A DNA stretch of 64,000 nt from Rhizodiscina lignyota. Lineage: Eukaryota. This document shows, piece by piece, positions 1,614-34,752 of the stretch (positions within the stretch are counted from its first letter, which is position 1; the number at the start of each line of letters is the position of its first letter). The notes under the pieces were generated by a model that ran no database searches, was not told where the DNA came from, and saw only the letters and a list, made by a program, of their open reading frames with translations. The position numbers and the translations under genes are program-made. Location of the stretch: positions 124,001 to 188,000 of the forward strand of contig ML978126.1 in the NCBI GenBank assembly GCA_010015805.1, in the 5' to 3' direction.

Positions 1614-4571
1614 TCATTGAAAATTGAAAAAGTCAAGAGACCCAGTCAAATTTTGAGAACGTCGCTGCGTTTCCTCAATAGCCTGAATCAGCAATTCCGA
1701 CGCCATTAGAGCCATATCAGACTTTCGTCCGAGGTACCACAGCGCTTTGACGCAAGATCTGCATCGCTGAAGAGCCTTTGCTGCATCTTCCGTGGCATCT
1801 TCTCCAGCTTTGCTCTGAGAAGCCGTAGCTCGCTTAATCAGCAAAGAGCCGGCTTTGGTGAAGACGCGGATCAAGCAAGCCGTCCAAGGTTCTGTCAGCA
1901 GAGCTCTCTGGCTAAGAGCATCATGCCATTCACCTCCGACCGAGAACGAGGATGGAGCATTGTCGTCATCGGGGCAAGCTGCCTTTGCCAGCGCCGCCAC
2001 AGCGGCTGAATTACGACTACGAAGAGCGTCGACGAAGCCACTAGCGTTTCTCACGAGGCGATGAGACTCTCTACCCCAGCATCCCGAGTCAATATTCTCA
2101 ATAACATCGGCGAGTATGAGAGTAGCGAGGTACCAATGGCCCGCGAGACAAAAGTACCACGATTGGATTCGGTGAGGGAGTTCCTCGTGATTGTGTACGC
2201 AGTCGTGGAAGAAAGGGTTGAAGGTTCGATTCCAGTAATCATACACGCTAAGGGCATCCGAGATAGCTTCCTCAAACTCTTCTTGTGGACGCGTTCTCCT
2301 TGCGAGAAGTGATTGAAGGCGGGTGACTTTGCGAAAGAGTAGGACTTTAATGGGAGCGGCATCGTTTAAAGTGCGTGCGGCAGCCTCATAGGAGCAAGGC
2401 CATCGCTGGGGTTGTGTCCGAGAAGAGACTCCTGCCTGCTGTCGGAAGAAGTGATCACCCCAGAGATTGTTTCTCGCAGCAGAGCGATTAATGTCCGCAG
2501 AGGTAGATTCAGCAGCAGGTGTGATTTCACTGTCCTCGTCTGAGACAACAAGTGGACGCTTGTGCATGGCAGCAGAGAGTGTATCGAACATTATGGCAAG
2601 CCAGTACAGTAGATCGATTGTTTTACTGTCCTCCGCGCTAAGACGAGAGACTTTCATCGGCGGAATTCTACTGCTTGGCCATGTGATGCCGCTAGGGCTT
2701 GAAGCGTCTTCTCGTTCGAGCCTTTCCAATTTTGACCGCATTGTATGGATATGACGAAGGCCTTGTTCGAGGTATATGGGGGGACCATCTTTGTCAGCCA
2801 AGTCCTCGAGCTCTGCCAAGGAGAGAGGAGGCGTTGGGGCACCAGTCCTCGATGGTTGGAAGGGACGATGGTGCTCTGCAGATCCTAAGTTTGCGGCACG
2901 ATTGGCTGTACGAGCATCAAACCTAGCAGAGTGCAGGTCGTTCAATTCTTCCGGCTGCCGCGGCCTCTGCGATGAATGTCGTCGTAAGGTATCTGAAAGG
3001 AGTGGTTTCTGCGTGAGACCGAAGATAATGTGCGCAAAGACGACCCGAAACGATTCTATATCTGCTGTATCCTGCAGAGCGCGGCGAGCTTGCTGCCACG
3101 TGGACTCTTGAATCGTTCGATCAAATTCTTGCTCCATGGTTGAAGCGAAATTTTCCTCCACCGATTCTCTTCCGTACTGTGAGGTGTTGCTCAGGCTGCC
3201 TGAAAGAGGAGACTGTCTTCTCCCGTTCATATCATTTTGAGAGTATGGAAACGTTGCTCGAGAACGCTGACTGGCCTGTGCCCACTGCGAGCCGAAAGAT
3301 AGAATAGCCAGATGGAGTGCTTTCGTCGCAGCCTTATCTTCTTCTCGGGTTAGCTCGCTTCCGCGGACGGTGGCGACGAGCTTATCGAGCTTGAAAACGC
3401 GTTTGTAGATTCGATTTGACCAGTCGGGACCCCATTCTTCGAGCATGCTTGCGGGTGAACGATCGCTCGTTGCCCGGACAGTCAGACTATAAGGGCACGT
3501 CCTCTCAGTAAGCCAGCAAGATAACGCATTTTCCATACTATCATGATATATTTTCATGAGGTTCACTGTGACAAGATTTCCGTTTGTCGCCGCTACAAGA
3601 CCTCTCGACATTAATCCTGGAAGTGTGTCGATGACGAAGGGACTTTTCTGGGAAGGCATGCGGCGCTTCCTCTTCCGATTTGGACGAGTGTCGGGCTCAT
3701 AATAGGATGAATCACGGCTGGAAGACCGCCACAATGCATTGACATTGGTGGAAATGTCGTCATCGGGATTTTCCGGGTCGACTATATCACTCGCATCCTC
3801 AATGGTCTCTGGATACATGGACGGATCGATACCACCGGAAATGCTTTGGAATGGTTGCGTAGCTGCGTTCAACCAGCTCAAAGAGCTCTCCGAAAGATCC
3901 GTCTCGACAGGTGAACATATCGAAGGTTGTGAGGCGCCTATCGATGATCCGTTGGCTAGCGATTGTAGAGATCCATCCAAGCTGGAAATGGAATTTTGAG
4001 GATAGATATCAGGCACAAACGGATTGCTCTGGGATGCGTCAAGCAAATTGTATCCCGCAAAAGATTGCCACCGCGATTCGGTACTACCAGCTTGATATGC
4101 GCCTGATGCAGGAACGCCCTGTGGAAGATTGGGGAAGCTTTGGCTCCAATCGGTCGATGACGTGAAATCAGACGTCGTCGATTCTCGCCTCTGTGTCTTC
4201 GGCGGCCGGAAAGACATCGTCGACTGCTGCTGGGCCTGGAGCCAGTCGAAAGTGCAGCTCTTGTTCGTTTTCGCACAGTAAGAGCATCGCCTTTTTGGGT
4301 CGATTACGCCTTGAAAACGCACGTCAGCTGAGGTTCTGATAAGCTTGTTTCCTGTGCGTCTGCTCTTCGTGGACGTTCAACAGGTAAACGGACCTGGATC
4401 AGGCCCTTGCGAAGGAGATGCAAAGCTCGCATCGCAAGCCCGTTTCCCCCTTCTGCACTGATCGCAACTCTTATTCTGCTTCCTGACCGTCTTGAAAGTC
4501 GATGGGTAGCTACCGGCCTGCGCAGGCGGATCGTTGGGGATTAAGTCCGTTTCAACTGTCTGGGTTGCCAT
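1614..4571 (-). CDS. alcR: AlcR-like Zn(II)2Cys6 transcriptional activator (2 exons: 4571-4394, 4309-1614)
   Basis: Spliced cluster CDQCRRGKRAC-x21-CSYCAKTNKSCTFDWL with the long C3-C4 loop typical of AlcR. AlcR-type blocks IYHDSMENALSCWLTE.CPY and WLAIMFDTLSAAMHKRPLVVSDEDS. Intron 4393-4310 (GTCCGT..GCTGAC..AAG) restores the frame. Confidence 0.88.
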
Positions 4572-5238
4572 TGCTTGCACAAACATGTAGGAGCGATGCA
4601 GTGAAAGGACAGCTGACAAACGAAGCAGAATGCTATAGGTGCCATCCAAACAGACAAATTGAGAAAGGATGGCTTTGAGATGCGGGGTTGTGGAGAAGTT
4701 CCTGGGGCCCTTGCCCGCACATCCCAGTCGCGGATGAACGCAGTCTGTCCTGACCGCCGATGCAGCTCCATGGCATTGGCTCTCAAGCGAGAAGGGTCTT
4801 CAGTCACATTCGGGCAGCCCGGGAGTGACGAATTGGGCCTGTAGCCTTTCGCGACATCCATGCAATGGCGCTCAAGGCGTTGCTGACGCGTGTTCGCGGT
4901 GTACTCCGCAGACGAGAGGGCAATATGGATTTTCTGCTGCCTGACTATGTATTGCAAAACTAGCAATGAAGAAATATTAACGTCCATAATGAGAAGAACG
5001 CTCTTGATTTCTAGAGGGGAATATCAAACATCGACCACGTCAAAAAGAACACGAAACGCCAATTCCGAGACACGCTCTTCAGGAGCAAGAAATCCTCAGA
5101 AGCCATTGAGGTTCGCTTGGAACGGCCAAGGCGGAAACCGGACGAAGGCAATTTCCGAAAGGGGTTGAACGCCGCCCGCCGCCTGGCACGTGACATCGCC
5201 GGGCCATCTCTACCGATGGAAGATCGTGATACGAATAT

Positions 5239-5874
5239 CTAGCTGTCCTCCTCCTTCTGTTGTTCCTTGGCCATCTTTTCAGCTTGCTCCTTCTTCTTCT
5301 TCTCTATAGCTTCGCGGTTTTTCTTCGCCCACTTGGGTTCAACCCCATCTTTCCAAGGCCCTCTATACAGCATGCGGTCTGCGTACTCGAGTAGCGTGTA
5401 TTCCTCCTGCGTCGGCGTGCCTGGTAGCTGCCATGGATCCACGATACAGGACTTCTCGCCTTGTGCTTTGCCCGAACCCACACACTTACACGCTAAAGCC
5501 CATCCCGCATCGTTCCGCTTTTCGGCTTTGCAACTGCGGTCCGGGTTCTCTTTGTTTAGTCTCTTTGCCTCCGCCTTGGCCTTCTTCCTGTGCCATGTTC
5601 CTCGGGCCATCAAGAGCTTGTAGACTTGCGCAGATTGTGTCGGATTGTGTTGGATCTCTGACATGTCCATTGCCGGCGTGGATTCAGCTGCCATAACCGC
5701 CATGTCATTTCCAACACCGGGCTCTTTGTCACAATTAGCTTAAGATGCCGATATGCGCATTCCAGGGTGGAAGTCATTTCGCCATAACATACCTGTGCTA
5801 TCATCAACTGGTGCAACAACAGAAGATGCCACGGCCGAAAGAATGGAAAAAGCCAAAATGAACCTGAGTCTCAT
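5239..5874 (-). CDS. Small secreted basic protein, about 188 aa, 4 Cys (effector-like)
   Basis: Signal-peptide-like MRLRFILAFSILSAVASS. Intron 5792-5724 (GTATGT..GCTAAT..AAG) joins it in frame to ORF 5239-5703. Confidence 0.75.
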
Positions 5875-6298: not shown

Positions 6299-7702
6299 TT
6301 ACTTTCCAGAGCGAATAGCTGTATAGACTTGTGTCTCGACATCGAACCACATACCCAGCACCTTTGCGTCTGCAAACGGAAGTATCTGGGTACAAACCAT
6401 GCCTGCGACTCCAGACTCTCGATCACACCACCACCAGCAATTCGGCAGACCTGCCCAATGACCCGTACCAGTTGAGCGACCAGTTACTCCTCCGTTGCTG
6501 AGCATGAATGTCAGCCCCCATCCTTGTTCCGGGCTTTCTGGAACCGGGTATAGATCTGGTATCGGATTGGTCAACTCCGGTTTTGCGTCTGGAATTCCCT
6601 TGCGTCCAAAATTTGGAAACTTCGTGATCTGGTTCTGGAACATCATGTCCACCGTCGACTGCTCCAAAAGCTTCACATGGGTTTTTGGTGAAACTCCTCC
6701 GTTCAGTAGCGTTGCCAAAATTTCTGACAATGTCAGCACATCGAATTTGCAGTTCTCGAAGGACATGTTGCTTACGGACATAGTCCCCTGGCTTTGCAAA
6801 GCATCCCGCACCACCACTATGGAAGAAGTCGTTTACTTTCATACCCGGCACTAAAGGCCGATGAAGTAGATGATCCCTGCGAACCAAGCTTCCATCAGGA
6901 CGGCGATAATGCATGTGCGCCAGCGCTGCTCTCATTTTCGGCCTTGGGTGCATCGTTATGTTTTCCAGCCCGAGTGGATTGAAGATGTGCGTCTGGATAT
7001 ATTCATTCAAGCTCATTTTGGTCGCTCGCTCGAGGGCAAAGCCTGCCCAGTCAATATTCACCTAGCCAGATATGTCAGAATTGCCCTTGACACCACGTTG
7101 GTGCATAGCTTACACCGTACTCCCAATCTTCTCCTGGCTGGTGAACCAAGGGCTGTTGGAGAAGGTCCTGAGCAGCACCAGAAAACTCGTCGAAGCCTAC
7201 TGGATAGCTGAAGTCTCGGAGCTTCTCATTGAAAAATGTGTATCCGAATCCAGCTGTATTCTCATCGGTCAGAGAACTCGAAGTAGAAATGCATAGAGGA
7301 TGACAAAGTACCTGTGTGGCTCAGGAGCATGCGAAGCGTGATTCTGTTTTTCTGTTCTACGAGCTTTCCATCATCTTGCAGTACTTTAAGACTTTTCAGT
7401 TCGGGGCACAGCTTGTCGAGATGATCCGCATCATCCAATTTGAGCATGCCTCTCTCCACCAACTGCATGCAAGCAAAGCCAACAATCATTTTCGTACATG
7501 ATGCAATCCAGTAGACGCTGTCCAGCGTCATTGGCTCATCACTTCCACTTCCTCTCTTTCCGCCAGCATGGGCAATGAGTTCTTCGCCATTACGATCTAC
7601 AACGACAACTGTCGTGCCTGGAATTCCAGATTTCTGGTCTGCGCAGGCAGTATCGATTGTATTTTGGATGTTTTTGATTGTTTCTGCGCTCAACGACGAC
7701 AT
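6299..7702 (-). CDS. Serine beta-lactamase-fold hydrolase (family VIII esterase / LovD-like), multi-exon
   Basis: SxxK motif WIASCTKM, ITLRMLLSHT, NIDWAG, GGAG and WAGLPN motifs across ORFs 7262-7774, 6423-7061 and 6299-6817. First ATG at 7702. Confidence 0.9.
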
Positions 7703-7880
7703 TTTGCTGTGGTGCCTGGTTAGAGATTTTCTAGGCAACGCTAAAGCTGATACCCGGAGCACAGGAGCAGACAACGTCTATTTACGGCTTTGCTTACCAC
7801 CACATTCACTATGACCAAATACGGACCACGGACGAAAGGTTTGTACCTAATTGTTAGATGACGCCCCTGCACGGATTTCC

Positions 7881-7928
7881 CCGCATAGTATGCGGATCCG
7901 CAGCTAATGAGGCTTTCGCGGGTCCGCA
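7881..7928. promoter_or_regulatory. Cluster of AlcR-type binding sites in the divergent esterase/BVMO promoter
   Basis: Perfect inverted repeat TGCGGATCCGCA at 7891-7902, near-perfect CGCGGGTCCGCA at 7917-7928 and an extra CCGCA at 7881-7885. Matches the A. nidulans AlcR consensus WGCGG-N2-CCGCW. Confidence 0.65.
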
Positions 7929-8443
7929 ATCCTTCCGACAGCCTCAAAACGCGGGGACGTCCCAGGTGCCAGGGCTCCAGAAAGGCAATAACACCATTTC
8001 AGTAGGGTCTAAAGATCCAGGCTCTTGGCGAACGTCAGATTGCCCCCATGGTCGACCTATTTGAGAACACTGAAAACTGCAGATGAGCTTGTAGATCTGC
8101 GGAGATGACACCCCTCATCGGTGTTGGCAGGAACCGGATGCTCCCGTTGGACCCTCACACGACAGATGACAGAAAGCATTGTCGCGTGTGCAGTACCTTG
8201 CGGAAGCGCAGAGCGAGAGCGACAAATGTCGTCTGCTTGCAAAGGTGCGAATGTTGGAGGCATTTCCAATTGCGGGACCGATGTTTGAAGCGGGGACAAT
8301 TAAGGGGCAGTGACTGAGTGTGTAACTGTCAAAGGAAGTATATAGAGCCTTATATCTTGTCTATTTTGAATATAATCTTCACTTATTCAAATCTCATTCT
8401 CTATTGTATGCATCGACTCCCCTTTCTTCGTAGCTCAGCCAAA

Positions 8444-10415
8444 ATGTCGACCGCAGAAGATGTTTTCGCCGCGCACAGCGACCCGGCCGTAATGGCCAAG
8501 ATGCATACGGACCTTGCGCAGTACAGCAACAGAAGGTCGACAACCGGGCCGTACGCGGACGATCTTGATGTCGATGTTCTCGTTGTGGGAGCAGGTTTCG
8601 GTGTGTCACCTCTGATGCTCTTGTCGTGCTTCACTGCTTGCTGACCACTATTAGGTGGCGTCTTTTGTGCAAAGACGTTACGAGAGATGGGCCTCAAGGT
8701 GGTCATCTACGAAGCTGGACAGAGCTTCGGAGGAACCTGGAGGTGGAACAGATATCCAGGTGCAAGGGTCGACTCTGGTACTAGAATCCCTGGTCACTCC
8801 TAGTCAGTTGCTGATGAAACTCAGAGGTACCTGAATACGAGTTCTCTTGGCCAGAAGTCTGGAAAGATTGGACATGGTCCACCAACTATCCGAATTACCA
8901 AGAACTCAGAGAGTACTTTGACCATGTTGATAAGGTCATCGACCTGAGCAAAGATTGCTCTTTTGAAACCGTAGTTACGGGAGCACAATTTGATACCAAG
9001 GAAGGAAAGTGGCATGTGAAGACGGCGGATGGAAGGCTCGCAAAGGCCAAGCATCTCGTCGTCGCAGCAGGATTTGTGTGTATATCTCCAATACCCGACT
9101 TTTCTCTGCTGATCCTCGCAGGCCTCTAAGCGCTACATTCCCAACTGGAAGGGACTGGACAGATTCAAAGGAACACTCCATCACAGCTCATTCTGGCCAG
9201 ATGAGGGTGTAGATGTCAAGGGCAAACGCTGTGCCGTCATCGGCACCGGCGCATCAGGCGTCCAAATTTCCCAGGAATGGGGTCCAGATGCTGGCGAACT
9301 CAAGGTGTTCCAACGAACGCCTAACCTCGCGGTTCCTATGGGAAAGCGCATGCTCACTCCCGAGGAGCAGAACAAAGGAAAAGACTGGTATCATCGACTG
9401 TATCAGTTGCGAGAGAAGTGCTACGGCGGCTTCTTCTACGGCATGCATGAGCGAAACACGTTCCAAGACACCCCAGAGGAGCGCGAAGCATTCTATCACA
9501 AGCTGTGGGATTACGGCGGCTTCAGGTTCTGGCTCGGTAACTACAAGGACATGCTCACGGACGCAAAAGCGAACCAGGAAGCCTACAACTTCTGGGCTAA
9601 GAACGTGAGAGCCCGCATTGGGGATGCGAGGAAGCGAGATATCCTTGCACCACTTGACATGCCCCACTATTTTGGTGTGAAGCGGCCATGTCTCGAGCAG
9701 AATTACTACGAGCAGTTCAACCGAGACAACGTGGACGTCATTGACATCAAGGACAATCCGATTGCCGAATTCACGGAGACTGGAATCAAGCTGGAGAATG
9801 GCGATCACTACGAGTTTGATGTGATTGCCATTGCTACTGGCTTCGTACGTCAAACCTTCGTTAAACCAAGACAGGATAGCCTTGAGCGCTAACGATCGCA
9901 GGATATTACAACAGGTGGCATGACCAACATGGGCCTCAAGAGCATCAAAGACACCGACCTTAAGACCGAATGGAAATCCGCCGCGAATACCTATCTCGGC
10001 ACCACTGTCGGCGGATATCCCAACATGTTCCATCTGTAAGTCATTTATCTGGCCCTTACTTACGCCTCGGCTGACAACATATAGATACGGCCCTCACGGC
10101 CCCACGCTTCTCTCCAACGGCCCCAGCACCGTTGAGGTGCAAGGACGGTGGATCTGCGACTGCATCCAGAAGATTGAGCGCGAGAACTTAAAGTATATCA
10201 ACCCCACCGACGAAGCGGTGAAGGCGTGGAAGAAGCGCATCAATGACATTAGCGATGCTACGCTCTTCCCGACGACGAGATCGACATACATGGGTGGCAG
10301 CATTCCGGGCAAGGCGTTTGAGCAGGTGAACTATGCGGGCGGAATCCCGGCATACTGTGTAGAGATTCGGAATGCGTTGGATGGATGGGTTGGATTCGAA
10401 ACTGTGGCAGCGTGA
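8444..10415 (+). CDS. Type I Baeyer-Villiger monooxygenase (FAD/NADPH), multi-exon
   Basis: VVGAGFG Rossmann motif, GGTWRWNRYPGARVDS, BVMO fingerprint FKGTLHHSSFWPD (FxGxxxHxxxWP), second VIGTGASG, FQRTPN, KRP and ATGF motifs. Confidence 0.93.
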
Positions 10416-11185: not shown

Positions 11186-12158
11186 TTTCGAAGACGGAAT
11201 CGTGCAAAAATATAAAAATATAGTGACTTAGAAAGCCGAAATGTACGGAGTGATAGGCGTAAAGCAGAGGAGCTCGTTGCTTAAGGAATACTGGAAGGTA
11301 TCCAACGGAGAACTTTATACCTATTATTTGCTGGGCCGTCAATTCATCAGACGTACTTCTTCGTTCAATAATGGTACGGGGTATTTGCTTGCGAAAACAT
11401 CCCGTGCCGTAGGCGAACCGCATGCACAATGGAGTCGCTGAGATCAACGAAGGTGTGGATAGCCGGACAGTCCAATGGACTCAGTCTTATCGTTAACCAT
11501 GACGTGAACCAAAGGACTGTGCCTCTCTTCTTTCGATTTTCGCCCTCGTTCTATGTGCCACGCTCGAAGACTTCTTTCATTGAGAGCAGGTCGTCGGCGT
11601 GTTCTCCTCCAATGCATCTCACCCCGAGGTGCTTCGCCTCAAGAGCTCGCGCCGTAGCTGGATCACCGTGAAAATCTGAAGCATCGTAAAGGCACAGTCG
11701 TTTATGAAAGACAATTACGGAGATCCCAGTATGAACAGAAGCTGGGGCGATATGTGATGGTCTGCTAACCACCGACGAGGACGCAACAAACGCCATTGGT
11801 AAGCGTGCCTGCTGCCACACCCTTAAATGTCACTGCTGAAATACAAACGTACGAACTCAGTCGCTCCGGAAGGGGTCTTAATATAAGTTTGAGCGAATTC
11901 AGACGAGAATGTATGTCGAAGAGAAGTGCGAAGAATTCTTTCGGCTGCCGTCTTTCCGTCGCGGCCTTCTTTCCCCGCTAGCATCGTGGAACCAACAAAT
12001 GAAATGCTAATCAATTGTGGTTCGAGTATATCAAATTACGTTTAGTTAAATTAGTTGATTATTTCTCTTTCTTTCATCTTCCCAATATTCTGCAGTTCAG
12101 AAATACCAGCTCTCTTTTCAAATTAAAATCCAATATTTGAGATTGTGAATTCTTCAAC

Positions 12159-13055
12159 ATGGAGCGCGACGGACACCCATATCAAAGCATTACGTACAAA
12201 ACCGTAGGATCGCTGCCCATCAAGCTCGATCTCTATCTCCCCTCGGCCTCATCTTCTTCCTCCAAAACGCCTATCCTCGTCTGGTATCATGGAGGCGGCC
12301 TGCTTAACGGCAGTCGTGCTGCTGTCAAACCTCACACTTACTCGCCTTTGGAGCATGGCTACGCCCTGGTGTCCCCTGACTACAGGCTCGCGCCGCAAGT
12401 GCCAGCACGTGAAATCCTGACAGATGTTCTGGACTGTCTGTCCTTCGTTCGCGATAAGCTGCAAGAGCACGTTCCGGCATCTTCGGGAATCACGTTCGAC
12501 AAAAGTCGGATCTGCGTATCGGGCTCGTCCGCGGGCGGATATATCTCGCTGCTGGCCGGTCTGTACAGCGACGTCCCTAAAGTCTTGCTGCCAATATATC
12601 CGATGACGGACTGCTGGGGCACTTTCTTCACCAATCCACAGATGCAGGGTGTGAAAGAGGGGCACATCGACAAGAGCGTCGTCGCGCCGTTTTTGGACAA
12701 GAACGCGGAGGTTATGGCTGATAACGACCCATCTTCACCACGTCAGCTGATCTACTCGTACATGCTGCAAGAAGCTATTCTGCCGGAGCTGTGGGATGTC
12801 GAAAAGGGCGATGAGAAGATGACTATCAGGCTTGCGATTATGAAGAAAGGCTCAATGCCCCCTTCTTACATTGTGCATGGGGACGCAGACACGAGGGTCG
12901 GCGTAGAGCAAGCGGACGAAGTCGTGCAAGCGCTGAAGGACATCGGTGCAGAAGTTGTGTACGAGCGACTACCAGGTCTGGACCACTCATTTGATATTGA
13001 ACCCAAGTACACTATGGATGAGATGTACGCATTCATGTATAAGCACATGCAGTAA
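12159..13055 (+). CDS. Alpha/beta hydrolase (HSL-like esterase/lipase)
   Basis: HGGG oxyanion motif, DYRLAP, nucleophile GSSAG, HGDAD acid and DHSFD histidine. Single 298-aa ORF. Confidence 0.92.
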   Translation: MERDGHPYQSITYKTVGSLPIKLDLYLPSASSSSSKTPILVWYHGGGLLNGSRAAVKPHTYSPLEHGYALVSPDYRLAPQVPAREILTDVLDCLSFVRDKLQEHVPASSGITFDKSRICVSGSSAGGYISLLAGLYSDVPKVLLPIYPMTDCWGTFFTNPQMQGVKEGHIDKSVVAPFLDKNAEVMADNDPSSPRQLIYSYMLQEAILPELWDVEKGDEKMTIRLAIMKKGSMPPSYIVHGDADTRVGVEQADEVVQALKDIGAEVVYERLPGLDHSFDIEPKYTMDEMYAFMYKHMQ

Positions 13056-13133: not shown

Positions 13134-16100
13134 CTAAGCGACCCTCCTAAATCCCCATTGCTCCATCCAAAGCGCCATCCACTCAGGTGTAACGGGCCCC
13201 AGTTTTTGCATCGTATGACTCTGCTGCAGCACCTTCTCGATCTTTAAGACTGGCAGAATCTTTGCTGCACCGTTGGCGTGCCCTTTACTATCGACAGTCA
13301 GTGTCTTGTAGAATTCGAGTAATTTGATGCCAGGGTTCTTGTCCACGTCGGCGCCTTTCGCACCCTCGCCGCTCTCCTGCAGCAACCGAACCCATTCAGC
13401 GAGTGACACAACCTTCACTTTCGGATCAAGGTAAGGTATCACACCGGGTAGGATAGTCCTCCAGCTGACACATGTCGGATTTGATAGATGGATCACGTCC
13501 GTGATGGAGGCGCTCTTCGAGCCCAGGAGAATTTCAGTGATCGACGGGGCCAGAATGTCAATCGGAATCCAGTCAATTCCATCCTGCAAGCCGAGCTCAT
13601 CAGGGATCGCGCCGATGTGTTCGGAAGAGGCGATTATACTGGGCAGCCACTCGCGGATGTTCCAGACCCCATGCGAAACCGACGTACCAGCAAGCACAGG
13701 ACCAGCAATCTGGCCAAGCCGAAGGATGGTGGATTGGATGCCAGAACGTTCCCCAGCGAGAGTCAGGAGCCGCTCTGCGATATGTTTAGAGGCTCCGTAA
13801 GCGTTCAACTGCGATACATCGATGTTGCTTGATATCGTTTCAGGTACCAATGCAGGTGAAGGATGGTCCATAACCGCGGAGATGGATGAGATGAAGAAGA
13901 TCCTTGGGGAATGGTGACCTCGGGAAGCAAAGTCAATGAGGTGCTTCACACCGTGGATATGCGGGATGAAAGACTGCAGTGGTTGATTAAAATCTACAAG
14001 CCAAGCATTATGCAGGATATGTGTCGTCTCGTGTAGAAGGGTTGTGTATTGATCGAATGAGAACCCGAGGAGAGGGTGAGAGACGTCGTAGGGGAGGTAG
14101 ACGACTTGGTCATCGGACTGGCCGGCATTGCGGCGGACCAGGCAATATATCTTGTCGAAGGATTTTCGCAGGGAAGACAGAAGATATGATCCTAAATTTC
14201 CCGTCGAACCTGTGAGGATGGCGACTTTCCGTGGAGACAGTGGAAGGCTTGAGGATAAGCTGCTGAGAAGTTCAGATGCGATTTCGTCGGTGTTGACCTT
14301 TCGATCATTGACCCCCGAACGTACGGCTTCCGTCAGCTCCGCAATCGTGGGGTTATTGTATATTGTCGTTGAGGTGACGTTAGATCCGAGCACTGTGTTG
14401 CTGAACAACTGGGCCAAACGAATCACATGTAGTGAATCAACCCCAGCCATGAATATATTCTGATCATCCTCAAGGCCAGATATGTCTGTCACTTGGTGGA
14501 TAATCTGACGAATGGTGCTCGCTGTGACGTCTTCCGCACGAGTCACAGGAACTGAAGCGTCCCCATTCATACCGTTCACTCCGTTAGCATGTCGATTGGT
14601 CAAGATCGAGCCCTGTTTGCGGTAGACCTCGTCCAAGTCTTTCTCATATGCTTCGAAAGTTTTGCGGCGCATGAGGCTTCCTTTGGGGGTTTTTATGATT
14701 GGCCTCCCATGTTTCGTGACAAGAATAAACCCCTTCTGGATTCTGCCATGTGCTGGTAGTAACTCGTTGGCTTTGGCCACCGCGGGCCATAAATCGTCGG
14801 CATATTTGCTGTCATCGAAATTGGGGTCGTTTGCCAGTTTCTCGTTAGGGTCAACGAGGAGCACAGCTTGATCACGATCTTGACCAAATACGGCACACAC
14901 TGTGACCTCCGGGAGAGAGTCGATAACTTCCTCCAGTGCCAACGGGTTGAACTTTTCTCCATTCACAAGAGCAATCACGTCATCCTTTCGGCCCGCATAC
15001 ATCCACAAGTATGATTTTTGAGGATCTGGATGTCGACGAAACAGGTCTTTCGTCCTGTATTCCTGCAGCCTAGGAAAATTATCGAAAACGGCCTGGCGCT
15101 CCTTCTGAATCCTGTCATCCCTGATGTAGACCAGTTCGTACAAATCAGTGCCAGGATCCTGCTGCAACTCGACGCCAAAGCCATCTATGAACCAGATGTA
15201 CTGCCAGTCATCGCCATATATCCTATGGCAAGGTGCAAAGCTTGTTTCCGTGGAAGCCATGAAGTTTGATATGTTCGGACCGAGCGCTTGGATGTTATTT
15301 CCTGCGTCCAGTGGCATATGCGCCCCAGAAGTGGCGATGTTCTGTAATTGCCTCAAAGCCGGGTAATATGCGACATCCTTTTGGAGCTCGACAAGGATTG
15401 CAGGTGGCGCAACAGCGGCCTTGGTCCCGGTCAATGAGATAATACGCGCGCAAAGATCTGCATTCACAATTTGGTCCGGTGGAGGAAATATCAACGTCTG
15501 CACAAGGTAAATGGGCTTGAGAGTAGCCCAGAGGAGGGCGGCGGCATGAAATAGTGGAAATGCGCAGAGCCATATGGGAGGAGAAGCATACGAGGTACTG
15601 ACACTAACGGGGAGTCCATCCTTCGGCTTATAATCCAGGTAGCCCCACATTCCCGATGACATGCAGCCATGTGTGAATCCAATCGGCTTTGGCAAGCTGG
15701 TCGTCCCTGAGGAGTGTAGGATAACTAATGGCTTCCGACGAATGTCTTCGAAATCCTTTGTGAATGGAATGTGCTCTGGTGCTGGACCGTCGAGCATGGC
15801 TTCGAGTTCTGGGATAAGGATTTCTTCGAGCGGCCTCGATTTGAGGATGGCATCGACACCGTAGAGTCTCTTCGCTGGCGTTGCAAAGACTGAGCATCCG
15901 ACTTTGTCGATAAGATGGATCTGAGCCTCCAAGCTATTTCGTGGTGATAGGTAGAGCATCTAAATGGATATTAGAACGAACAAATCAATAAGAGTACAAG
16001 GAACAATTAACTAACCACACAATTTACTTTGACTGCCGCAAACATGAGAATAACATATCGAAGGTCATTGGGCCCAATGTACGCAATCTTCCGAGTCTCC

Positions 16101-16318: not shown

Positions 16319-18750
16319 AACAAGGATTCGGGACTGTGTTACACAGGAAGGAGAAGATCGTTGAAAAGATGAGCAAAGTCAGCAAATATAAGTGAGACGA
16401 GAACTCGTTCTTTTAAGCTGATTCCATATACTCGAACCGGAGCCATTCTCCAAAATGAGACACATGCAGCGCCTGGCTGGAGGCAACTAACTGCGAGGAG
16501 AAAGTTTGGCTATGACGACGGCAAACCCGGAAGATCAGTCTCTACTCCGTAAAGTCAGTTAGCAAGTTTTGGAATCTCACACCATTCAATGGTTCAATCT
16601 TACCATCGTCCATCCTATTACGTGCCCTTGAAGCGATGGAGACAACCACATGATCCAAATATTCTCTGACCGAGTAAAATGGTTCTGAATTGAAAGATGC
16701 TTACTTCGATCGGAAACACGAGGATGACAATGGTTGATTAATATGGCTCCACCCGTGAAACCTACCATGAAGGAGATTGGCTGAGTCGACGACAATTTGA
16801 TTATATGGGTTTAGTGAGTTGCTTCGAAAGACGTCTGCAGCCTTTCCAAGCCCTTAGAAGCCCATGCTGCCTCGAGCCGAGTATGCTTACGTTGTGTTGA
16901 GCATGATAAGAGAGGTCGAGGAATGCGGGTTTCAAAGAACGAAGTGTAGGCGGCCGCTCAAGACCGCTCAACGATATAAGGTACCAAGCCGAGCTTGGTG
17001 AATAATAGCAGGCGTGGCGGGCTACGATCTCACACGTTCCGACACTGCCACGCCGAGTGAGCCACCCGAGTGAGCCACCCCATGTGAGACGAGGGCGAGT
17101 AAATCGACCATCGGGCTACCGACGTTTGCCCACATATCGTTTACGAGATTGAACTAGAGATCAAAGAATTAATTGGCCATGTTCATACGAGACGCTCCTG
17201 GCGATGACGGAAGTGAATGTTGTGATTTCGGGAGAGTGGTGGGCTAAGGAAGGCGTTGCGGAATCGAGACAGATGCAGAGCCCTGTCCAGACGCTAGACC
17301 AGTTTCGAGCACTTACAGCATCGACTTCACATTCTTCTTCTCGGACGAGATGCCACGAAACGACGCGTTCCACAGCAAATCTATGAATAACGAAGCTGAA
17401 CATTCAAGTGCTGACGTGCTCAAGATTCAATGGCTACGAAGTGGACTGACCTTTGCCACAGTGCCGTCCTGCTTCCCTTTGACTCTCCGTCGGAATTGTC
17501 CCTGAGATAATCCAAAGACACGGAGAACGACCTGACGTCCAAGACCCACAGCACACCGCATATATCGGCAACGTAGACCTAATTTCAAGGTTCTGTGCGA
17601 ACAGTTCGGCACTACCCTCGACCCTCGACCGCGATTGATATTAACCGGCTTACTTAACGATCGCGATGTGCTTCTCTTTGGCTGCCCTCCTCCATCTCAT
17701 GCAAGACAGTTGACCACGACGTCTCGAGCACAGCACGAGTTGTACGACCACAGCCAACAGGAATCTCGATAGAACGGTGAATACGCCATACATGCAAGCC
17801 TGAACTGCTTGGGGCCGATACGGACGAGCTTTCGCCTCCCCTACTAGTGTCGAACAGTTCAGGATATATTGAGGATAATTATTGCATCCGCGGAGATGAA
17901 CACCGAGGAGTAATTAGAAGAGGCTGAGCTGGGCTCAAGCATCCACAAGGGCACCCGCTTTCTCTGGATAATGTCCACGATGCCGATCCAATATACGCTA
18001 GATGTAAGATACTTCGGAGGAAAGTGATATGGACACTACAAGCGTTGCACTCATTTATTGCAGTGATTAACAGGCTCACTTCCCTCCAGGAGAAATGCAT
18101 GTGTTTGGCTTCTTTCGAGGCTTTGAACGCTGCTTCCCACAGGCGCAAAGCCTGCACTGATCCGCACGATTCTGGATTCCGGTACATACATCCATCATTA
18201 CACCACAGAATGATGTAATCCATAGGCAGCTACTAGCAGCTACTGAAACTCTTCAAATATGCTCCCGCTATCGTTGTGTAAGCTACCAAAATCAATTTGC
18301 TTAATCTCCATCTTCCGGTCTATTTTCGTAGTCCGTGATTTCCAACACAATTTCATGCTTGTTTTATCGTAGAACGCTGGTCAGATCTTCACTTGTGTCA
18401 TTGTAGAAGTAATGAAATTGTTCTCTCATTCCAGTGAAAGCAATACGCGTATCGGAAAGTTTGTAGTGGACACAATTCAACGGTTCGCCTTGCTCAGTCC
18501 ATTTCAACGATATCAACGATAGGTAGCCAATGGGATTTAATCGATTACCTTTCACCATGATGGCGTTCAACCCAATTTTTTCTCTCATTGTACTGCTATA
18601 AATTTATAGTATCTCCGCAGCTCACTCAACATCCTCTAAGAGACTTAATTTCGACCTGCATTCACCGGAATTCGTTACAAGCTCGCAAAATATACTTCTC
18701 TCCGAAACAAAAGCAAGCAGGAAGACAAGTCTTATTTGCAGCCTCCTACC

Positions 18751-20214
18751 ATGTCTATAGCCGCATTTGAAGAGGATGCTTGGTCTGAGTTGGTGGAAAC
18801 CGTCATTCACGAGGCACAGCTAGAAAGAAACAAACCAAAACTTCAGCATGATCCGGAGTTGGAGTTCACCGACAAGTCATACTCCAAGTTCTTGCAATTG
18901 CCGGCTGAGATTCGCTACAGTGTCTACGAGTCATATCTGGGCAGCGACAATCTCCTTACCTGTCCCGATTTCATGGGCTGGAAGCCCCCAGTCCCTGTTA
19001 TCGTCAATCCAAGGGCTATTTTCGAACCCATCCAGGCTCGACTAGGGGATGTTGCTCGATCTCACCAAGATTCGCCTTCCGAGCATGCTTTGAAGCGCAA
19101 ACGGGAATGGCGACTCCCTCTGGTGTGCAAGGCAATCGCATCTGACGTGACAAGGCATCTTCATCCTTCTTTTGATAAGATGGGTATCACTATCGAAGGA
19201 ACGGGGGTCTCCATTGACGGCCGACACTATAGGACGCAGGGTGTCGTATATCCGGAAGTTTTACAGAGACTTCTCTCTCGGTACTTCGAACATGCTAGAG
19301 AGGTGCTAATACATAGCACTATTTTGCCATGCGAAGACTTATGGCACCGCTGGGATGACTATTCTGGTCTCGACGGTATTACTCCTTACAGCAGAGAGTT
19401 GGGTTTTGGGTATTCAGGATATGAACTGAACAGTATATCGTACGCTTTCGAACCGTGGTCCATCAAGAACACATGGCGTGTGATCGCACCTCTTCTCGAC
19501 AGAAACAATGCTCCGCACCTGCGCAAACTCACGATCGTATTTCACACCCACGTCTCGATGCGAGTACAGCAAAGCCTCTTGTCGCAATCGCATCGGGTAC
19601 TCGGCACCACCCCCATATCGGCAGACACCATCACCTGGATCCTAGAGCCACTGACTAGTATCCGCACCGCCGCGTCCATTGTCTTGGAGTCAGTACACAT
19701 GTCAACAGACGGCGGGTGGGGCGAATTGGATCCGGTCAGTGTAGGGATTCATATGCGCACCAAACTTTCACAAGAAGTGCGAGACTCCTTCCCAACGCTC
19801 ACAAAGCAACTCTGCAAATCAACGAAGAGTTTCAGCACTCCGCCTCATTGCCGCGCATTCGATACCTTTGCGTACTTTGAAGCTCTCCTCTGGGAAGCCA
19901 TGACGGTGCCGTCCCTCCTCGACACCGCATTCTGGCTGTACCAAGGACAGTTGCTCCGTGACGAGCACGACGTCTACAGCTACAGGGCGCTCGAGGACAT
20001 TGTGTTGCAAGAGTACGCTGTCGAAATAGATTCTCCTTCGGTCGTCCGAGCGGTGCCGCAGTATATCGTTGCCTTGTTCAAGGCCTTCCGTAGTGCGTGT
20101 AAGGAGAGGGAGGAGTGCAGCGGTACACATACTGAAGGATACTGGCAGAAGCGCCCGATGTATGAATGGCTCAGTACTAAGCATCCCATTGGGCGATATA
20201 ATGTGCATAGCTAG
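18751..20214 (+). CDS. Hypothetical protein with N-terminal F-box-like motif
   Basis: Long single ORF (first ATG 18751) with FLQLPAEIRYSVYESYL. Confidence 0.7.
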   Translation: MSIAAFEEDAWSELVETVIHEAQLERNKPKLQHDPELEFTDKSYSKFLQLPAEIRYSVYESYLGSDNLLTCPDFMGWKPPVPVIVNPRAIFEPIQARLGDVARSHQDSPSEHALKRKREWRLPLVCKAIASDVTRHLHPSFDKMGITIEGTGVSIDGRHYRTQGVVYPEVLQRLLSRYFEHAREVLIHSTILPCEDLWHRWDDYSGLDGITPYSRELGFGYSGYELNSISYAFEPWSIKNTWRVIAPLLDRNNAPHLRKLTIVFHTHVSMRVQQSLLSQSHRVLGTTPISADTITWILEPLTSIRTAASIVLESVHMSTDGGWGELDPVSVGIHMRTKLSQEVRDSFPTLTKQLCKSTKSFSTPPHCRAFDTFAYFEALLWEAMTVPSLLDTAFWLYQGQLLRDEHDVYSYRALEDIVLQEYAVEIDSPSVVRAVPQYIVALFKAFRSACKEREECSGTHTEGYWQKRPMYEWLSTKHPIGRYNVHS

Positions 20215-34733: not shown

Positions 34734-34752
34734 TGCGGATTGCGGCACCGCA
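34734..34752. promoter_or_regulatory. AlcR-type inverted repeat upstream of sugar-porter gene
   Basis: TGCGG (34734) then TGCGGCACCGCA (34741-34752), ending about 94 nt before ATG 34846. Confidence 0.5.

Follow-up and report, generated by a model that had tools for sequence, protein, structure and literature searches.

Conserved AlcR-type sites between divergent esterase and Baeyer-Villiger monooxygenase genes next to an alcR-like gene in Rhizodiscina lignyota

Organization of the locus

The window analysed here is a 64,000-nucleotide stretch of Rhizodiscina lignyota contig ML978126.1, near one end of which lie genes for a transcription factor, an esterase and a monooxygenase, all three modelled as spliced, with GT-AG introns and open frames. 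The 957-aa Zn2Cys6 transcription factor is encoded at 1614..4571 on the minus strand. Among PDB entries, only 1f4s, the DNA-binding domain of AlcR, significantly matches both of its zinc-cluster exons (E=6e-5 and 6e-3), and the body of the protein matches entries named AlcR with E=2e-154 (45% identity) and E=3e-120 (42%). Judged by its sequence, the product of 1614-4571 is a member of the AlcR family. No second AlcR-like gene was found in the genome, a single copy being a lower bound. AlcR is a textbook fungal regulator, widely used as an inducible switch.

The AlcR family is marked by an extended loop between Cys3 and Cys4 and a basic N-terminal arm, and the zinc cluster of the regulator agrees with this type, its loop measuring 21 aa. 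It departs from that of Aspergillus nidulans AlcR at several residues close to the recognition region, and has Thr, which is common within the family, where AlcR has Trp. A Lys and several Arg residues align with AlcR, three basic residues differ or are replaced, and DNA contact by AlcR involves four arginines (PMC6265462; articles with PMC numbers are cited here from excerpts). The C-terminal part has a confidently predicted helical domain, for which Foldseek returned no match at E<=0.001; a second structure comparison ranked Cep3 first (Z 13.2, rmsd 6.3, 372 aligned residues), a weak likeness that is borderline by the standards of helical folds and does not bear on the inducer. The only intron of the gene (4310-4393), located inside the zinc cluster, is 84 bp long (in frame) and contains a stop codon, with a weak-looking donor and an AAG acceptor. 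Its splice sites are predicted, and its retention would yield a truncated regulator.

The second gene (6299..7702, minus strand; exons 7312-7702, 7114-7253, 6776-7061 and 6299-6723) encodes a 413-aa esterase of family VIII (PF00144), whose marks are the beta-lactamase fold, an S-x-x-K motif and a downstream Tyr motif. The S-x-x-K is present at residues 68-71, the Tyr motif is found as well, and the PDB relatives of the protein are esterases and transesterases. The third gene (8444..10415, plus strand, six exons) encodes a 572-aa type I Baeyer-Villiger monooxygenase (BVMO), or one of 553-556 aa if translation starts 48-57 bp further downstream. It carries both type I fingerprints, FxGxxxHxxxW[P/D] and [A/G]GxWxxxx[F/Y]P[G/M]xxxD, and the two GxGxxG motifs of this class. 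With one exon as query, its best PDB matches are 6y48 (E=2e-111) and 5j7x (E=3e-81), corresponding to the Aspergillus flavus enzymes BVMOAFL210 (PMC12015234) and BVMOAFL838, its closest solved relatives.

The divergent intergenic region

The esterase and BVMO genes are transcribed divergently, and the interval between their two ATGs (7703..8443, 741 bp), delimited by the gene models, lies 3 kb from the alcR-like gene. An earlier sequence-only reading had described it as a promoter rich in AlcR-type inverted repeats (7891-7902, 7917-7928, 8199 and 8271) and in WGCGG half-sites (7881, 7891, 7898, 7924, 8098, 8199, 8271 and 8289), and all four repeats and all eight half-sites are present at these positions. 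The perfect repeat TGCGG-AT-CCGCA (7891..7902) is about 190 bp from the esterase ATG and is followed by CGCGG-GT-CCGCA (7917..7928). Towards the BVMO gene are a degenerate repeat with one mismatch, TGCGG-AA-GCGCA (8199..8210, plus strand), and the sites TGCGG-GA-CCGAT and AGCGGGG (8271..8295, plus strand), 150-175 bp from the BVMO ATG. The half-site in TGCGGGG (7879..7885, minus strand) can also be read as the CreA-type motif SYGGRG, the one in TGCGGAG (8098..8104, plus strand) overlaps such a motif, and GCGGGG (7951..7956, plus strand) matches SYGGRG and lacks WGCGG. Putative TATA elements precede the BVMO gene (TATATA, 8339..8344, plus strand) and the esterase gene (TAAATA, 7779..7784, minus strand). 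The sites thus fall into two groups: one near the esterase gene, at 179-249 bp from its ATG, which includes the two complete repeats, and one near the BVMO gene, at 154-345 bp from the ATG of that gene, in which the repeats are degenerate. The region is probably a pair of back-to-back promoters, each with its own site group.

In 5000 dinucleotide shuffles, WGCGG occurs 2.93 +/- 1.62 times, compared with the eight present (P=0.006). GCGG-N2-CCGC is present twice against 0.01 expected, a number reached in none of the 5000 shuffles. Taken by itself, the number of half-sites stands out only moderately, with at least eight WGCGG in 29 of 1266 overlapping 741-bp intervals of the 64 kb (∼2%), including others near 35.0 kb and 54.5-55.1 kb. 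Across the 33.4-Mb genome, single WGCGG-N2-CCGCW repeats are not enriched (127, against 142 for the reversed control). Two GCGG-N2-CCGC repeats within 5-35 bp of each other occur once, at 7891-7928, and the reversed-control pair also occurs once. With single repeats at background and the pair count equal to that of the control, the window alone is suggestive, and the case rests on other fungi. Chance clustering of GC-rich words would fit these background frequencies, and it is weighed below against the orthologous promoters.

Extension of the motif to a genome-wide regulon was considered and set aside: eight other TGCGG-RY-CCGCA sites lie in or near genes that are unrelated by Pfam, mostly without extra half-sites, and are not counted as targets. 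Elsewhere in the window, TGCGG-AT-TGCGG-CA-CCGCA (34734-34752), a direct repeat combined with a perfect inverted repeat, lies about 95 bp upstream of the start codon of a sugar-transporter gene, which may be a remote target of the AlcR-like regulator. A third perfect repeat (20049-20060) lies within the reading frame 18649-20214 and is probably due to chance.

Conservation of the gene cluster

A metagenome scan with an AlcR alignment yielded 59 alcR loci, many of them short, with neighbours known within 10 kb or from locus tags. Among these loci, 17 contain an orthologue of the esterase, eight a close orthologue of the BVMO, six both, and five the same divergent layout. When at least 4 kb upstream of alcR is available, one or both enzymes are present in 14 of 29 loci, or 13 of 24 after merging near-duplicates. 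Ten of the 24 distinct loci contain neither enzyme, and in two of these ADH or ALDH genes were identified. ORF clustering of the alcR loci revealed no other enzyme family that recurs next to alcR in distantly related lineages. Adjacent or near-adjacent locus tags are carried by the AlcR and BVMO genes of named genomes (M1834_003219/003218, M1818_004940/004939 and VTN00DRAFT_4212/4209), and at least seven further species, one of them a yeast, list both proteins on contigs of equal length, which suggests adjacency without proving it.

In the window, the BVMO gene is adjoined by an alpha/beta hydrolase gene (12141-13055, plus strand), and an NRPS-like adenylation-thiolation-reductase gene (13134-15959 and beyond, minus strand) lies near it. 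Neither gene has a match in any of the 59 alcR loci, which places both outside the conserved module. A secondary-metabolite cluster including the NRPS-like gene was rejected on the same ground, as it is not conserved.

Conservation of the sites in orthologous promoters

Phylogenetic footprinting had been proposed as a check of the sequence-only reading. The motif was fixed from the letters of the window before any orthologous sequence was seen, and was then counted in the divergent promoters of five orthologous loci (L004, L014, L023, L033 and L038), leaving out the window itself. Dropped before counting were L018 (which aligns with L016), L039 (a duplicate of L032), and L021, L054 and L060 (little or no upstream DNA). 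In the five promoters TGCGG occurs 37 times against 8.5 in shuffled sequence, ranking first of 512 5-mers (z=11) ahead of GCGGA, and GCGG-N2-CCGC occurs six times against 0.05 expected. All six have the 2-bp spacer that characterizes AlcR inverted repeats, and every other spacer from 0 to 12 occurs at most once. Direct and everted repeats in these promoters have no preferred spacer, and permuted control words do not exceed expectation. Relative to the rest of the same loci, TGCGG is enriched 4.2-fold and the repeat 74-fold. The perfect 12-mer of the window recurs in the promoters of L014 (twice) and L038, and the degenerate 12-mer at 8199..8210 recurs identically in that of L033; the L004 and L033 promoters have half-sites and no complete repeat.

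By blastn, the five promoters have no similarity to each other or to the window, and the enzymes of these loci are 61-77% identical, so that the shared sites do not reflect carried-over sequence similarity. The recurrence of a motif fixed in advance, with one spacer only, in promoters that cannot be aligned, and the absence of enrichment of permuted words, already contradict chance clustering of GC-rich words, which we regard as extremely improbable.

Ten further promoters, each serving an esterase gene alone or a BVMO gene alone, agree when pooled (TGCGG 50 against 15; repeat 5 against 0.11), and those of L006, L013 and L016 are weak, with 1-3 TGCGG as in control promoters. In L024 the esterase and BVMO genes lie apart, on either side of alcR, and a repeat accompanies each of the two, from which both genes appear to be targets. 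The L024 esterase promoter (L024:2220-2340) contains tandem near-copies of a short unit with CCGCA in each, as if sites arose by local duplication.

The footprinting thus finds the sites conserved in the orthologous intergenic regions and, together with the AlcR-family identity of the regulator, strongly supports the earlier assignment of AlcR-type sites. At the level of sequence, distant ascomycetes retain TGCGG half-sites in front of both enzyme genes, with a preference for the form TGCGG-N2-CCGCA. These half-sites agree with the AlcR consensus, and the genes behind them stay linked to an AlcR-family gene. With WGCGG half-sites arranged in repeats above chance and conserved, the region has the sequence features of an AlcR target promoter. 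The sites are highly likely to be functional. The DNA motif itself was already known, and what appears new is its conserved use at an esterase-BVMO-alcR cluster.

Control promoters and the ethanol genes

As controls we used 31 promoters of ADH, ALDH, BVMO and esterase paralogues from this genome, placed by tblastn offset and in some cases including intron or coding DNA. These contain 0-3 TGCGG per 750 bp and no repeat, including the promoter of an unlinked esterase paralogue with 65% identity. Compared with them, the 16 target promoters (window included) have 3.35-fold more TGCGG, and the repeat is present 13 times against none. The best alcA-like (L074, 74%) and aldA-like (L078, 71%) genes lie on other contigs and have two TGCGG and no repeat in 750 bp, placing them among the signature-free controls, so that the ethanol genes do not look AlcR-controlled in this genome. 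Neither gene shows the AlcR-site signature or the clustering with alcR that marks an alc (ethanol) regulon. As a positive control, loci L009 and L010, with an A. nidulans-like zinc cluster and ADH or ALDH neighbours, have the same repeat upstream of these neighbours, indicating that the site follows whichever genes adjoin alcR. The upstream region of the regulator itself (4572-5240) contains three TGCGG and no repeat, and none of the other alcR genes scored has an upstream repeat; autoregulation of the AlcR type is therefore not visible. In L012, L022 and L025, two perfect repeats (positions 256 and 6736) flank an ABC-transporter gene upstream of a Trp-type alcR, and the ABC transporter, or a gene beyond the DNA covered, may be a target.

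CGG half-sites are general to the Zn2Cys6 class, and the sites could be real and bound by another factor of this class, with alcR merely linked; the lack of visible autoregulation would agree with this. The enriched word is nevertheless the published AlcR pentamer (A/T)GCGG, which AlcR binds as a monomer (PMC6265462), the same repeat precedes ADH or ALDH genes where those adjoin alcR, and unlinked paralogues lack it. Another Zn2Cys6 factor is thus quite improbable, and binding by the regulator encoded at 1614-4571 is, on the strength of these sequence patterns, very likely. That both the esterase and the BVMO genes are its targets we consider likely, only a little less firmly.

CreA-type motifs and glucose repression

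In the sequence-only reading, SYGGRG motifs mostly overlapping GCGG were taken to mean that AlcR and CreA compete for overlapping sites, resulting in glucose repression. The region contains six SYGGRG motifs against 2.8 expected (P=0.053, 5000 dinucleotide shuffles). Four of the six do overlap GCGG, and two non-overlapping ones (7754 and 7975) had been omitted. All four overlapping motifs are of the form GCGGRG, so that the overlap with GCGG follows from the motif itself. Compared with the control promoters, SYGGRG as a whole is enriched 1.27-fold (P=0.06). The forms containing GCGG are more frequent (GCGGGG 2.3-fold, P=0.003; GCGGAG 2.7-fold), and no enrichment is seen for those that cannot also serve as AlcR half-sites (CYGGRG 0.86-fold, GTGGRG 0.69-fold). 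The CreA motifs of the earlier account thus find no support beyond chance overlap.

Lone half-sites are followed by GG in 26 of 116 cases, against 113 of 2181 in the whole-locus background, and a CCCCGCA element is conserved in three alignable promoters. Some dual CreA/AlcR sites may be real. Against the promoter controls, however, the excess of GG after GCGG has P=0.43 for all sites and a marginal P=0.05 for lone sites. Competition between the two proteins had been cited as established, whereas ChIP in A. nidulans shows CreA and AlcR occupancy rising together, with a positive correlation (PMC8844935). In the same data, 33 of 62 AlcR targets are also CreA-bound, and about half of the real CreA peaks lack SYGGRG (PMC8844935). 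Taken together, competition for overlapping sites as the cause of glucose repression is unlikely. Glucose repression of the gene pair is plausible, and repression by CreA is possible and unneeded to explain the sequence.

Proposed function of the module

We propose that 7703-8443 controls a catabolic module of three genes, the alcR-like regulator, the esterase and the BVMO. A small carbonyl compound would activate the product of 1614-4571, which would bind the TGCGG sites and induce both enzyme genes. The BVMO would then turn a ketone into an ester by inserting oxygen, its substrate most likely being an aliphatic methyl ketone and possibly an aldehyde or a cyclic ketone. Hydrolysis of the ester by the esterase would release an alcohol and an acid, to serve as a carbon source or in detoxified form. 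Known inducers of AlcR are acetaldehyde, the physiological one, and 2-butanone, termed non-physiological (PMC5371717). BVMOAFL838 converts 2-alkanones to alkyl acetates and prefers aliphatic ketones (PMC4966971). An AlcR-family activator inducing a ketone to ester to alcohol and acid module is the best explanation of the locus and, in our judgement, a reasonably probable one. Ketone catabolism as the job of the module, with the substrate taken from relatives, is favoured with less assurance.

AlcR might instead run the module for another job, such as detoxification of aldehydes to formate esters, conversion of cyclic ketones to lactones, or tailoring of secondary metabolites. Biosynthetic roles are known both for BVMOs and for this esterase fold, and the transesterases among the PDB relatives of the esterase, the nearby NRPS-like gene and the role of acetaldehyde as physiological inducer (PMC5371717) would all fit such jobs. 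On the other hand, the NRPS-like gene and the neighbouring hydrolase are unmatched in the 59 alcR loci, the esterase and BVMO are the only enzymes that the ORF clustering shows recurring next to alcR in distant lineages, and the related BVMOAFL838 prefers aliphatic ketones (PMC4966971). Another job is therefore a credible minority reading, with ketone catabolism preferred.

Relation to known systems

To our knowledge, nearly all that is known of AlcR concerns ethanol use in Aspergillus. The alc regulon of A. nidulans (AlcR with alcA, aldA, alcM and alcS) shares with the locus the regulator family, the (A/T)GCGG half-site, the inverted repeats and the clustering of the regulator with its targets. 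The locus differs in that the putative targets are a BVMO and an esterase, the best alcA and aldA orthologues of this genome lack the signature, and the regulator has no upstream repeat and has its Thr-for-Trp substitution in the second half of the zinc cluster. Clustering of alcR with its targets is also seen in the alcR-alcA-aldA-alcS cluster carried as Starship cargo in Penicillium, as excerpted from PMC12256816, which L009 and L010 resemble and with which they share the repeat. The Penicillium cluster has ethanol-oxidising genes in place of the BVMO and the esterase.

BVMOAFL210 and BVMOAFL838 have been studied as biocatalysts, and the excerpted sources assign them no regulator or native pathway that we could find. 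Bacterial operons combining a BVMO and an esterase are known from Pseudomonas veronii (mekAB/mekR) and Gordonia (acmAB). They convert a ketone via an ester to an alcohol and an acid under a dedicated regulator, a likeness of chemical logic, in bacterial operons with unrelated regulators. MekA is named in PMC4966971.

In the literature searched we found no account of a cluster of alcR with esterase and BVMO genes, or of AlcR acting on such genes, and an earlier mention, for instance in the primary alc papers or the list of 62 AlcR ChIP targets, is possible. The excerpts of PMC4117967, PMC4360782, PMC12501005, PMC3998117, PMC10526403 and PMC13606033 do not describe the cluster. The conserved cluster would give the AlcR family a second, possibly older, job, and the patterns in the sequences suggest that what AlcR induces is often, and was perhaps at first, the breakdown of ketones and not the use of ethanol. 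The cluster would also provide a large group of fungal BVMOs with a proposed native pathway and offer a direct way to test why methyl ketones induce AlcR. Switches with a different range of inducers could be built from the cluster promoters and from divergent AlcRs.

Evolution of the AlcR linkage

Trees were built from 44 AlcR-family sequences (550 columns), covering 27 of the 59 loci and rooted at the midpoint with no outgroup. A. nidulans AlcR is absent from these trees; its zinc cluster is nearly identical to that of sequence P0116. The Penicillium-type clade linked to ADH/ALDH genes has a support of 100. It lies inside esterase/BVMO-linked lineages, enclosed by a series of nodes supported at 98-100, and its closest sister is the BVMO-linked L036. 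Linkage to the esterase or BVMO occurs on both sides of the midpoint root which, with the nesting, makes the esterase/BVMO pair the older partner by parsimony. Starships carry alc clusters (PMC12256816), and horizontal transfer in the history of these clusters is possible.

AlcR may have begun as the sensor of an ascomycete BVMO-esterase module for ketone catabolism, the ethanol regulon of A. nidulans and Penicillium being the outcome of late rewiring in which the DNA site and the carbonyl-sensing domain were retained; we put this forward tentatively, as an account with slightly less than an even chance of being right. If true, an ancestral ketone role would explain the strong activation of AlcR by 2-butanone and would assign a native role to BVMOAFL210-type enzymes.

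A divergent AlcR-like subfamily (L040-L048 and L051) lacks the usual zinc-cluster pattern, and several of its members adjoin a distant flavin monooxygenase with ∼25% identity to the BVMO of the window.
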